A stretch of DNA of 64,000 nucleotides, taken from positions 1,211 to 65,210 of the forward strand of contig NZ_JAIXST010000034.1 of NCBI RefSeq assembly GCF_027484545.1, read 5' to 3'. The translations under genes and the position numbers were made by a program. Within the stretch, counting starts at the first letter, position 1, and each line of letters starts with the position of its first letter. The DNA comes from Runella sp. Lineage in GTDB: Bacteria > Bacteroidota > Bacteroidia > Cytophagales > Spirosomataceae. Under the pieces are notes generated by a model. The model was not told the origin of the DNA and made no database searches. It saw nothing but the letters and a program-made list of their open reading frames with translations. This document shows, piece after piece, positions 10,071 through 56,473 of the stretch.

Positions 10071-10087
10071 CGGGGCCGCCCGTGCGG
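10071..10087 (+). repeat. Dispersed GC-rich motif CGGGGCCGCCCGTGCGG, copy 1
   Basis: Identical 17-mer on the minus strand at 30427-30443; 15-bp core again at 56444-56458. Confidence 0.85.
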
Positions 10088-10151
10088 CAGTTTACAGTTA
10101 AAAAAAGTTTACAGGTTATATGCAGTAGGCAGTTAAAAATAGGGTAAATTT

Positions 10152-10225
10152 TACTGCCTACTGCCTACTGCCTACTGCCTACTGCCTACTGCCTACTGCC
10201 TACTGCCTACTGCCTACTGCCTACT
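10152..10225. repeat. Perfect heptamer tandem repeat (TACTGCC)x10 plus TACT
   Basis: Direct count; abuts the stop codon of the amidohydrolase; inverted partial copy GCAGTAGGCAGT at 10122-10133. Confidence 0.97.
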
Positions 10226-11526
10226 TATTTATCTCCAATCTCGTATTTATCGGAATATTTGCGGTACTGACGTTTTTGGCGGTCGTCAAGGTCGGTTTTT
10301 CGGCCTCTGATAAAAGCCTGTTCGATGCCGTTGGAACGCATATCCAAAATGTCACCTTTGCAAACTACAAGCGTAGCCATTTTCCCTTTTTCCAACGTAC
10401 CTACCAGTTTATCAATTCCTAATAGTTTGGCAGGAGTAGAAGTAATCATCTTTAATGCTTCTTCGCGGTCGAGATTTCCGAATCCCGCAGCTGTACCAGC
10501 TACAAAAGGAAGATTACGGGTTCGCCAATAGGCTTCGCCGTAGCTAAGGGCCACGGTTACTCCCGCTTTCTGTAAAAGCGCAGGCAACTGATAAGGTTGA
10601 TACACAGGCTCATCCTGCCGATTAGGCAAACGATGAGTTTCGCCCAATACGACTGCCACATTATTCTCTTTTAAAAAATCGGCAACGCGCAGGGCATCTT
10701 CGGCTCCCACAATATTGATTTTTTGTACCCCCTGTTGTTTCGCAAATTTTACGGCTTCTATGATGTCTTTGCTGTTGTCGGCACGGATGTACAGACTTTG
10801 GCTTCCGCTGAAAAGCCCTCGCAATGCCTCCAGTTTGAGATTTGTAATGCTTACATTTTTGATTTGACTGTACGCACGAGCATCAGAAAACAGTTGAGTA
10901 AGGCTATTGATAATCTCCTGACGACGTGTATTTCGTTGAAGACTCAACGAAAAATCATCGAAGTTGAATTCGCGGGCAAAGTAAGGAGGCCAAGTGAGCC
11001 ACAAACCATCGTCTTTTTTCAAAGCAGCATCTTCCCAGTTCCAGCCGTCAAGCTCCATCACGGATGAGGAGCCAGAAATCGTACCGCCCTGGGGCGTGGC
11101 TTGAGTTAACAGCAAACCATTGTTACGAAGCGTTGGTATCACTTCCGAATCGGTATTGTAAGCAACCAACGCCCGCACACTGGGGTTGAGGTTGCCGGTT
11201 TCCTGATTGTCACTGGTAGCGCGTACCGAGCTGATTTCGACCAAACCCGTTGTGGCTCCCATGGCGATGAGCCCCGGATAAAGATGCTTACCTGACACCT
11301 CAATTACCTCCGTTTTACTGCGGTCAAATGCCGTGTTGGCATCACCTACCGCTGTAAGAATACCTTTATCAAATACAACGATGCCTTTTTCAATTACGGT
11401 TCCATTTCCAACGTGGATGGTTCCTCCTACCAAAGCAATGGCCTTGGTCTGAGGTTTAGCCGGCGCAGGGTTTTGAGCCCAAACGCCGAGAGAAATAAGG
11501 CTTAGAAATATAGTTAGTTTTTTCAT
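10225..11526 (-). CDS. Secreted amidohydrolase-family protein (metal HxH motif absent)
   Basis: Signal peptide; [34 protein letters not shown]. Confidence 0.85.
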
Positions 11527-11552
11527 TTTTCGTAATTCTTGATTTTGAACGC

Positions 11553-54831: not shown

Positions 54832-55032
54832 ATTTGAAAAAACAAGACTGTTTTGCAAAAAGATGAAATTCAAAGATAAATGTCATTTTTGTAAAATCCA
54901 AAGAATTGAAGTACCTTTAAATAACTTTATGATCTTTAGCAATTCCCTAAAATTCATTCTGGCGAATAAAATTTTTTAAAATTTGTTAGAGTGAGTCAGC
55001 ACCATTACTTTTGTAAAAAACGGATATTTTGA

Positions 55033-55605
55033 ATGAATACCACTACTCTTGTTAAGTCTGCCCAAATAGCCGGTGTTCAATTGCACCAAGTGAGATTGCA
55101 GTCACTGAATGAGCACAAAGATTATAGAGGGTCATTTACGGAAATTTTTCAGGATAATTGGGGCACAGTACTTAAGCCTGTTCAGTGGAGCTTAGTTAGG
55201 TCTGAAGCGAATGTTTTTCGCGGAATGCACTTTCATCAACGCCACGATGAGTATTTCTGTTTGATTGAAGGACACTGTGTATTGGGATTACGTGACTTAC
55301 GCCCCGGATCTCCTACTCAACATCAATCGGCTTTGTTTGAACTTTTTGGAGAAGATCCTGCCGCCTTGATTTTTCCGTTAGGAATGATACACGGATGGTA
55401 CTTTCATACACCATCAATTCATATACAATCAGTTTCAGAAGCATATATAGATTACGGTCCAGATGATAATTGGCGTTGTCGTTGGGATGATCCGGAACTG
55501 GAACTGCCTTGGGGAATTGAAAATCCTATCCTGACAGATTTGGCCGCTACTGCCCCTTCTTTGCGTAGTCTAATCGCCGCTTTAGAGAGTAAAGGGCATA
55601 TGTAA
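55033..55605 (+). CDS. dTDP-4-dehydrorhamnose 3,5-epimerase family (RmlC-like cupin)
   Basis: DYRGSFTE, FRGMHFH, DLRPGSPT, GMIHGW, WDDPEL; own -7 element TACTTTTG at 55006-55013. Confidence 0.82.
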   Translation: MNTTTLVKSAQIAGVQLHQVRLQSLNEHKDYRGSFTEIFQDNWGTVLKPVQWSLVRSEANVFRGMHFHQRHDEYFCLIEGHCVLGLRDLRPGSPTQHQSALFELFGEDPAALIFPLGMIHGWYFHTPSIHIQSVSEAYIDYGPDDNWRCRWDDPELELPWGIENPILTDLAATAPSLRSLIAALESKGHM

Positions 55606-56407
55606 GCTTTACGCGCAAAAAAGGAATAAGTTCTGCCCATGTTTTTCCTTTAATTCTGATCCAATCATTTTGGAGAGCAGCCCGTTCGTCCAATAATGCC
55701 TGTAAAGCCTCCCGAGTAGCGGCTTTTAGAAATTCATTGTCTGTCAATTTAGCTTCCCAGCTTGTTAATTCATCTACCCGTTCATGAGTTGGAATTCCGG
55801 GGTAGGTTGCTCCCCGCTTAAAATACAGCAGCGTTGCTTCTCCGCTAAAATACGGTTGATAGGAAGGATGAGCCATGAATTGTGCCCACATATAGTCGTC
55901 CGTAAAAATGTCGGGAGGAGTAGTCCGCCATCCAAATGGTAAATTTTTGTAGAATTCATACGTATGGGCTACGGCCGAAAATACAAAATGCTGGCTGGCG
56001 TGAGAATACCCATAGCGAATATCGCCCGTTTGCAGAGGCTTGAAATAATTGGACGATACAAAATTTCCCTTTTCAAATAAGCGCAAAAGATTTTCAAGGT
56101 GATTGGGCAACCACAAATCGCGATCTAAAAGATAAGCGACAAATTGCCCTTTCGCTTCGTTAGTCAATACTTGGTGCCGATTAGGCTCTCCCCGCCTGAT
56201 ATGTTTTGGGAAATCAAAAAATTTTATTCTTTTGTCTTTTTCCAGAAGCTGATGGATAACTCCTCTCGTATATTCATTTACTCCATCACCAATGATAAGT
56301 AATTCAAAATCGGCAATTGTTTGTTTGAGTACACTCCCTACCGAATAAGGCAACAATAAACCTCGATCGTTCGTAGTAGGCAATAAAATTGTAAATCGAG
56401 GATTCAT
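55547..56407 (-). CDS. Glycosyltransferase family 2
   Basis: SVGSVLKQT, ELLIIGDG, AYLLDRDLWLPNHL. Confidence 0.8.
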   Translation of the reverse strand: MNPRFTILLPTTNDRGLLLPYSVGSVLKQTIADFELLIIGDGVNEYTRGVIHQLLEKDKRIKFFDFPKHIRRGEPNRHQVLTNEAKGQFVAYLLDRDLWLPNHLENLLRLFEKGNFVSSNYFKPLQTGDIRYGYSHASQHFVFSAVAHTYEFYKNLPFGWRTTPPDIFTDDYMWAQFMAHPSYQPYFSGEATLLYFKRGATYPGIPTHERVDELTSWEAKLTDNEFLKAATREALQALLDERAALQNDWIRIKGKTWAELIPFLRVKLTYALYSLKRRLDYAKKGQ

Positions 56408-56423
56408 CCGTAACTTTTATTTT

Positions 56424-56473
56424 ACCTCTCTCCAACATGGAGAGGGCCGCCCGTGCGGAGGGGCAGGGGTGAG
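56424..56473. repeat. REP-like C/G-rich hairpin element containing copy 3 of GGGCCGCCCGTGCGG (56444-56458)
   Basis: CCTCTCTCC-AACAT-GGAGAGGG hairpin, the motif, then AGGGGCAGGGGTGAGG. Confidence 0.7.

Follow-up and report, generated by a model that had tools for sequence, protein, structure and literature searches.

Small dispersed repeats (SDRs) of 21-27 nucleotides (nt), designated SDR1-8 and attributed to Elhai et al. in 2008, are reportedly found in Nostoc punctiforme and its relatives, where their presence or absence is said to indicate mobility. These repeats reportedly often lie in tandem heptamer arrays or other small repeats, nest in related elements and occur as several families per genome. 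SDR4-6 are reported to have a shared secondary structure that is supported by compensatory changes. Among the cyanobacteria examined in another study, SDR-like repeats were confined to the Nostocaceae (PMC5861425). Here we describe a 16-nt unit, CGGGGCCGCCCGTGCG, in the bacterium Runella sp., for which the Nostoc SDRs appear to be the closest known analogue. Three copies lie in a 64,000-nt stretch of DNA (hereafter the window; positions 1,211 to 65,210 of the forward strand of contig NZ_JAIXST010000034.1, assembly GCF_027484545.1), and the unit was followed through the source genome, a Runella draft of 7.12 Mb, 42.9% GC and 354 contigs. Homologues of a protein from the window belong to R. rosea, R. 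slithyformis, R. limosa and other species of Runella (Spirosomataceae, Cytophagales). The unit is probably a non-autonomous, ultra-small insertion element that is moved by a trans-acting, end-specific DNA enzyme common to the family Spirosomataceae.

Abundance and boundaries of the unit

The Runella genome contains 67 exact copies of CGGGGCCGCCCGTGCG, 61 copies with one mismatch and 34 with two, while the reversed motif, used as a control, gives 0, 0 and 3 matches at the same thresholds. The core of CGGGGCCGCCCGTGCG is the most frequent 13-mer of the genome. In an alignment of 142 copies, the information content is approximately 2 bits through the whole 16-nt unit and zero immediately outside it. 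An earlier note on the window, made from its sequence alone, had described a GC-rich motif of 15-17 bp, had interpreted it as a minimal inserted element or a binding site, and had proposed a genome-wide count with an alignment of flanks. The count and alignment reveal a dispersed family (67, 61 and 34 copies at 0, 1 and 2 mismatches). They also speak against the possibility, raised in the same note, that the motif is a fixed segment of one longer conserved repeat, as conservation drops to zero outside the unit. The repeated sequence itself is real, and its limits are refined: the insert is 16 nt long (CGGGGCCGCCCGTGCG), and the next G belongs to the target.

The only informative flanking positions are -1, where a purine is found, and +1/+2, where G is followed by T (69%). 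The commonest targets are A|GT (49 of 132 sites) and G|GT (28 of 132 sites), where the bar marks the point of insertion. The last base of the unit is G and GT comes next, so the 3' junction of an inserted copy (G|GT) is again a target. Substitutions within the unit cluster at position 13 (T>C/A) and position 6 (C>T). A half-site search detected no excess of 5'- or 3'-truncated copies. Pairing of the base that precedes the insert with the variable position 13 was considered and rejected, as no covariation was found between base -1 and position 13.

Filled and empty sites

For a comparison among paralogues, the flanks of every copy were joined after removal of the insert and the resulting junction was searched across the Runella genome. 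Matches across the junction were found at many places, and approximately 20 such pairs of filled and empty paralogues were aligned. In these pairs the difference is exactly CGGGGCCGCCCGTGCG, without target-site duplication (TSD); the insert separates two bases that are neighbours in the empty copy, the first usually A or G and the second G. The hosts are mutually unrelated: REP (repetitive extragenic palindrome)-like hairpins, heptamer or octamer arrays, GC-rich hairpins, insertion sequence (IS) elements and a GxxExxY-type gene. What these alignments record is the precise, full-length, TSD-free gain (or loss) of a discrete 16-nt unit at R|G(T), where R is a purine.

The orthologous spacer next to the DUF4412 gene of the window offers a further comparison. 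A sister lineage with a DUF4412 protein of 91% identity has the same spacer architecture and lacks the copy found there (copy 1). In a pairwise alignment the two spacers differ by one heptamer and by a single gap of 16 nt, which coincides exactly with copy 1. Copy 1 has an orthologous empty site. Sister species at about 83% nucleotide identity also lack copy 1, with spacers too diverged for base-precise alignment. At the site of the second window copy (copy 2), relatives with a neighbouring protein of 94-96% identity lack the motif and have a different heptamer cassette in the middle of the spacer.

The earlier note's proposal of a minimal inserted element agrees well with the sharp 16-nt boundary, the approximately 20 paralogue pairs and the one collinear sister-lineage spacer without copy 1. 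The comparison of filled and empty orthologous sites in sister strains, also proposed there, succeeded in part: the site of copy 1 is empty in that collinear spacer of the sister lineage, but near-identical strains are all filled at copies 1 and 2.

Location of the copies

Clearly non-coding DNA holds 121 of the 171 copies found with up to two mismatches; random positions fall in long open frames in 84% of cases and are clearly non-coding in 16%. Wherever a long frame reappears once the 16 nt are removed, the gene encodes a transposase (DDE_Tnp_1, DDE_3, rve, IS66 or HTH_Tnp_1). The same pattern is seen in other genera, with IS256-, IS630-, IS3- and IS110-like genes (assigned by reading translations). 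Because 16 nt shift the reading frame, the insert is mutagenic and is retained solely within IS transposase genes and between genes. This location pattern is as expected for a frameshifting insert that is purged from host genes by selection. RNA-level removal or ribosomal bypass within host genes was rejected, as no non-IS gene bears a copy. The densest cluster of the Runella genome is found on contig C161 (C161:1-900), where a remnant of an IS5-like transposase carries six 16-mers and one 17-mer relative (described below) within 800 nt.

Many sites lie within other repeats. When the sites are excised in silico, 32% match another place of the genome across the junction, compared to 5% of random intergenic sites. 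Likewise, 13% of the sites are inside 7-8-nt tandem arrays, compared to 0.7% of control RGT sites. The suggestion of the earlier note that repeats are targeted thus holds statistically, both for dispersed repeats and for these arrays. Within tandem arrays the insert falls at the unit boundary (units read GTnnnnA), such that the phase of the array is kept. A family of REP-like hairpins has 86 intact members and 5-6 interrupted members, always at GGA|GA; the third window copy (copy 3) is in a hairpin of this type. Two diverged IS3 copies carry the insert at the same codon, as do two IS630 copies from different genera. Because the flanks in such cases are only about 70-75% identical, the choice of site must involve more than the three visible bases. 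Other abundant short repeats of the Runella genome are CCCCCAATGGGGG (60 copies), AAACCTATAAGGT (39 copies) and CGCATCGGCGGTC (28 copies); the last of these is a hairpin in which, in other genera, the 16-mer is often found.

Longer relatives, tandem arrays and mirror pairs

The half-site search also identified 32-nt elements of the form CGGGGCCCGCA(A/G)CGGCG(G/T)ACCGTGCCCGTGCG, with at least five copies in the Runella genome. One such GC-rich element, CGGGGCCCGCAACGGCGGACCGTGCCCGTGCG, is found on contigs C283:20609, C167:12302, C130, C184 and C34. A second type of 32-mer is CGGGGGCGGTTCGCCGCTGCGACGCCCGTGCG, and a relative of 17 nt is CGGGGCGCCCCGTGGCG. The 32-mers and the 17-mer share the kind of target of the 16-mer, and CGGGGCCCGCAACGGCGGACCGTGCCCGTGCG also shares its ends: joining the first 7 nt of the 32-mer to its last 9 gives the 16-mer. 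On contigs C127, C195, C280 and C302, a 16-mer is nested in the 32-mer after nt 16, and a 17-mer is nested in the 32-mer on contigs C96 and C292. The 32-mer is rare and restricted to the same clades as the 16-mer.

As the unit corresponds to the two ends of a longer (32-nt) element, it might be regarded as an excision footprint, in which 7-9 terminal bases from each end of a larger transposon are left behind after its departure. This origin is very unlikely. A longer parent was sought as termini CGGGGCC...GCCCGTGCG at a recurrent spacing and was rejected, as none was found up to 8 kb in the Runella genome. The sites also lack a flanking target duplication, and neither tandem arrays nor nested copies are expected of a footprint.

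Tandem arrays of the unit do occur. At locus L168 (G030:C131:6080-6680), which is from another genus, five exact head-to-tail 16-mers are present where the paralogous loci L166 and L167 hold one, and a truncated sixth copy and a deletion adjoin this array. At least four head-to-tail 16-mers are found on a contig of a related metagenome-assembled genome (L026). Such arrays are compatible both with reinsertion at the target that the junction recreates and with a process of the rolling or templated kind.

Exact head-to-tail arrays of at least five units could also be produced by a templated filler at DNA breaks, whereby a reverse transcriptase or polymerase with a fixed RNA or DNA template (telomerase-like) adds one or more 16-nt units to 3' ends at nicks or breaks, which are then rejoined, with breaks occurring mainly in heptamer arrays and mobile DNA. 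The absence of a target duplication would agree with such filling, as would the preference for arrays and IS elements, which are likely break-prone. A master template would also suit the position-13 variants, the dominant one of which is genome-specific (for example, mostly A in genome G007 and mostly C in genome G031). However, a genome with 37 copies has no match to RVT_1, all copies are full length with no excess of truncations, and no RNA gene bearing the unit is found within the window. Furthermore, recognition of ends accounts better than a single fixed template for the nested copies and for the 32-nt relatives, whose ends are the same. Filling of this kind is therefore an unlikely source of the family.

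In a genus designated g7 and its relatives (loci L217-L225), unrelated palindromes carry a 16-mer in each arm, the two being in inverted orientation and placed as mirror images. These mirror pairs lengthen the stem of the palindrome by 16 GC-rich base pairs. The two arms usually carry a matching position-13 variant, including two A/A pairs. Mirror pairs are best explained by templated copying from arm to arm, or by insertion into an extruded stem.

Distribution in the Spirosomataceae

The exact 17-mer (the unit plus the G of its target) is present in 123 of 291 Spirosomataceae genomes and in 24 of 44 genera. The number of copies per genome ranges from 0 to 106, and whole genera are without the motif. 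The reversed control gives two matches in total across the 291 genomes. Named records with the motif include Emticicia, Spirosoma, Larkinella, Dyadobacter, Runella, Lacihabitans, Fibrella and Rudanella. In the sampled genomes from other families of the order, the motif is absent but for a single copy in one genome. The flanks differ everywhere, and the themes of the sites recur across genera. A search for the 16-nt sequence in the library of papers that was covered found none containing it.

A sequence that is short, GC-rich and identical at unrelated places could be an adapter, a linker or another artefact of sequencing or assembly. However, more than 120 independent assemblies contain this one, among them complete chromosomes and contigs from metagenomes (JGI, ENA, Logan and NCBI), its point variants show a decay tail, and it is confined to one bacterial family. 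An artefact is accordingly an extremely improbable source.

The conservation of the sequence across 24 genera could instead mean that it is a selected functional site, for example a protein-binding site or a GC clamp that strengthens intergenic hairpins and terminators. Its abundance would then be due to selection, with insertion as the mode of delivery. Mirror pairs, which give local palindromes a perfect 16-bp GC stem, are in line with such a role, and so is the stability of copies 1 and 2 within the species while the adjoining heptamer arrays vary. Nonetheless, the copies have no consistent position relative to genes (those of the window lie in convergent, divergent and tandem spacers), and many are inside transposase genes that they frameshift. 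The motif also varies from 0 to 106 copies among close relatives and is missing from whole genera. The unit alone forms a 4-5-bp stem that is no better than that of shuffled sequence, and no gene among the families tested co-varies with it. Selection for a function is thus an improbable explanation of the abundance of the unit.

Copies in the window

The pattern GGGGCCGCCCGTGCGG matches the window perfectly at 10072-10087 (+) and 30427-30442 (-), and a third match, at 56443-56458 (+), has a single mismatch. The pattern is not matched in any of 100 dinucleotide-preserving shuffles. Together with the near-zero reversed-motif control in the whole genome, this agrees with the earlier view that the copies are beyond chance. 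The 17-mer CGGGGCCGCCCGTGCGG can be read directly at 10071-10087 (+) and 30427-30443 (-), and its 15-nt core at 56444-56458, where they were first noticed. The three copies occupy a convergent, a divergent and a tandem spacer. A search of Rfam identified no RNA family overlapping the motif copies and no RNA gene bearing the unit within the window.

Copy 1 (10071..10086, + strand) is identical to the consensus CGGGGCCGCCCGTGCG. It has the TAG stop codon of the DUF4412 gene on its 5' side and the G of GCAGTTTACAG on its 3' side. Its host element (10087..10240, no strand assigned) consists of GTTTACA-type units followed by inverted CAGTAGG / (CTACTGC)n heptamer arms, with 10 units in the window. 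In same-species contigs from different metagenomes that are otherwise identical, the (CTACTGC)n array (10154-10233) ranges from 5 to 15 units. The number of units is the sole variable there, the 16-mer and all other bases being fixed.

Copy 2 (30428..30443, - strand) is also an exact consensus copy, with A|GT as its target on the minus strand. It lies in a TGAATGA/GTGAATG-type array within the spacer between the divergent trpS and DUF2461 genes, and its host array (30444..30485, - strand) is made of degenerate GTGAATGA/TGAATGG units. The repeat contexts first described for these two copies, GCAGTTTACAG units beside copy 1 and a TGAATGA-type array around copy 2, are correct. In relatives, both ends of the trpS/DUF2461 spacer (30385-30535) are kept and the central ~95 nt (the TGAATGA-type array with the 16-mer) are swapped. 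The replacement is an unrelated GTTTACA-type array of ~72 nt. As this spacer comparison illustrates, heptamer cassettes are exchanged as blocks.

Copy 3 (56442..56457, + strand) reads GAGGGCCGCCCGTGCG, in which bases 1 and 2 deviate from the consensus. It splits the 3' arm of a REP-like hairpin (56425..56476, + strand) at GGA|GA, the order being cctctctcc-aacat-gga, the insert and gaggggcaggggtgagg. As the earlier note had observed, deletion of the 16 nt (56442-56457) rebuilds a regular hairpin, cctctctcc-aacat-ggagagggg, which is followed by caggggtgagg. Exact-protein look-ups with the neighbours of copy 3 returned no records.

Proposed model for movement

We infer that a trans-acting enzyme recognises the ends of the element. 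This enzyme would bind the termini CGGGGCC...GCCCGNGCG and copy or move the unit into new sites, among which short tandem arrays and other repeats would be strongly favoured. The mechanism would operate at the DNA level, without TSD and by way of single strands (HUH-like). In the Runella genome, CGGGGCCGCCCGTGCG has been inserted about 160-200 times. A HUH-like DNA-level mechanism is somewhat more likely than reverse transcription; recognition of ends at the DNA level is preferred because of the all-or-none length of the copies, the ends shared by the 16- and 32-nt elements, and nesting.

A number of results weigh against this model. The direction of change, insertion as opposed to precise excision, is one that we infer from the frameshifted transposase genes, and no movement has been seen directly. 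Exact-protein look-ups show copy 1 present and identical in nine same-species metagenome contigs and copy 2 present and identical in ten. There is no insertion polymorphism among near-identical strains at copies 1 and 2, with no empty sites. Because both copies are fixed among such strains, the element is not switching rapidly, and it stays in place over the time in which strains diverge. Scans of metagenomes found no empty copy-1 site and no tandem dimers of the 16-mer. The unit itself folds into stems of only 4-5 bp, no better than shuffled sequence, and target sites show no enrichment in hairpin loops or unusual structure relative to control RGT sites. Hairpin loops and unusually structured DNA were therefore rejected as the targets, being indistinguishable from those controls.

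No mobilising gene for the 16-mer was found among the gene families tested, which counts on the same side. The Runella genome has nine Y1_Tnp genes. The six of these loci that have listed coordinates carry no motif (up to four mismatches) within 900 nt, and the number of Y1_Tnp matches does not correspond to the number of copies: genome G011 has seven matches and no copies, and G031 has one weak match and 18 copies. A link to REP-associated tyrosine transposases (RAYTs) of the REPtron kind was rejected, as Y1_Tnp neither adjoins the motif at these six loci nor correlates with copy number. The RAYT or IS200-like linkage that the earlier note had suggested looking for was accordingly not found, with Y1_Tnp neither near the motif (six of nine loci) nor tracking the copies. 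Y2_Tnp has no match in G030 (106 copies), G009 (37 copies) or G031 (18 copies). RVT_1 does not track copy number and is missing from a genome with 37 copies, and the four-helix-bundle family (the protein of 23S intervening sequences) does not track it either. IS91/Y2, reverse transcriptase and four-helix-bundle families were rejected as mobilisers for want of a phyletic match. One match to PF05635, a four-helix-bundle family, is located in the window at about 39927-40244 (G000:C321:41137-41454). The only recurrent neighbour genes of the motif are IS transposases, with no non-IS family among them; a recurrent neighbour gene of the kind known for Ssn nucleases was rejected for this reason.

In a proxy test against the sign of GC skew, the two orientations of the copies are found at 23:21 and 17:13 (p = 0.81), and along a complete chromosome with 47 copies, also a proxy test, orientation is mixed with no replichore pattern. 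A replication-strand bias was therefore rejected, none being seen by GC skew or on the complete chromosome. The absence of an orientation bias counts against a lagging-strand route of the IS200/IS605 type.

The 16-mer is one of the smallest DNA elements of mobile appearance seen so far. Both the unit (16 nt) and its target are defined, and with 0 to about 100 copies in related genomes it is suited to phyletic profiling. Its hosts are culturable, non-pathogenic freshwater and soil bacteria (Runella, Spirosoma, Larkinella and Emticicia), and its tandem arrays, nesting and mirror pairs limit the mechanisms that come into question. Duplication-free insertion of a fixed 16-mer at a 3-nt target would be new biology for an enzyme, and such an enzyme might serve as a tool. 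As the unit marks and inactivates IS copies and reshapes intergenic hairpins, it matters for annotation and for genome evolution.

Comparison with known systems

REPs and their doublets (REPINs), which are associated with RAYTs (Y1 HUH enzymes), resemble the 16-mer in being short, extragenic and GC-rich, in having hundreds of copies and inverted doublets, and in lacking a target duplication (PMC3116915). Y1_Tnp genes are also present in the Runella genome. Unlike REPs, however, the 16-mer does not flank the Y1 genes checked (six of nine), and its copy number does not follow theirs. A REP is an imperfect palindrome of 20-40 nt headed by a 5' GTAG-like tetranucleotide, whereas the 16-mer has neither a strong palindrome nor such a head. 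The REPIN replicates as an inverted doublet; the doublets of the 16-mer lie in unrelated palindromes and have unrelated spacers, so the doublet is not the replicating unit.

Miniature derivatives of IS200/IS605 share with the 16-mer a precise, TSD-free insertion directed by a short target and ends that need to be recognised (10.1101/279083). The target of IS200/IS605 is a tetra- or pentanucleotide 5' of the left end, whereas that of the 16-mer is only R|G(T), and 16 nt are too short for the two subterminal hairpins of such derivatives. IS200/IS605 elements also show a lagging-strand template bias, while the 16-mer has no strand bias (p = 0.81; proxy tests). Classical miniature inverted-repeat transposable elements (MITEs) have terminal inverted repeats and a TSD, unlike the 16-mer, the ends of which (CGGGG... 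and ...GTGCG) are not inverted and which causes no duplication. Tandem arrays and TSD-free insertion recall IS91 and the rolling-circle family; however, the high-copy genomes G030, G009 and G031 have no Y2_Tnp match, which separates the 16-mer from IS91 (Y2 HUH) derivatives.

The Ssn enzymes are GIY-YIG single-strand nucleases for which NTS/SRM repeats are a motif read by a dedicated, sequence-specific enzyme (PMC11893778). The SRMs are hairpins of ~30 nt (ATTCCC-N8-GGGAAT core) that flank the ssn gene (PMC11893778). The 16-mer is likewise a short motif with hundreds of copies and a number that varies strongly between related species, but no gene is recurrently flanked by it, it is a fixed-length insert and not a hairpin, and its sequence is different. 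The 16-mer thus departs in at least one tested defining feature from each of the systems compared so far, namely REP/RAYT, derivatives of IS200/IS605 and of IS91, classical MITEs and Ssn/SRM. The mobile GC clusters of yeast mitochondria and the byp elements are organellar, 30-55 nt long and often accompanied by target duplication, and byps lie in coding genes, where they are bypassed by ribosomes. Like the 16-mer, these are short GC-rich blocks in AT-richer DNA, often within other repeats. Unlike them, the 16-mer avoids host genes and frameshifts transposase genes.

The agreement with the Nostoc SDRs is closer. Both are dispersed non-coding repeats of less than ~30 nt (the 16-mer with ~160 copies at up to two mismatches), and both are present or absent between homologous sequences (for the 16-mer, ~20 paralogue pairs and one orthologous site). 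Both are often found in heptamer arrays or other repeats (13% vs 0.7% and 32% vs 5% for the 16-mer), both nest within related elements (the 32-mer for the 16-mer), and in both cases a single genome has several families. They differ in length (16 nt vs 21-27 nt), in host (Spirosomataceae of the Bacteroidota vs Nostocaceae) and in sequence, which is unrelated. With regard to the shared structure reported for SDR4-6, the 16-mer forms 4-5-bp stems no better than shuffled, and its position 13 does not covary with base -1. The 16-mer further differs in its defined target (R|GT), and its tandem arrays and mirror pairs are documented.

I read the 16-mer as a trans-mobilised mini-element of the Nostoc SDR kind, by analogy in the features listed above. 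How mini-elements of the SDR type move has been a question since 2008, and the 16-mer family is a tractable second system in which to ask it. More tentatively, and with some doubt, the 16-mer and its 17- to 32-nt relatives may be the smallest mobile DNA elements so far found in bacteria, moved by an enzyme class new to transposition that would recognise ~7-9 nt per end and act without TSD at R|GT, and the same kind of machinery may lie behind the Nostoc SDRs. If this is true, machinery common to both would explain the preference for heptamer arrays in two distant phyla.

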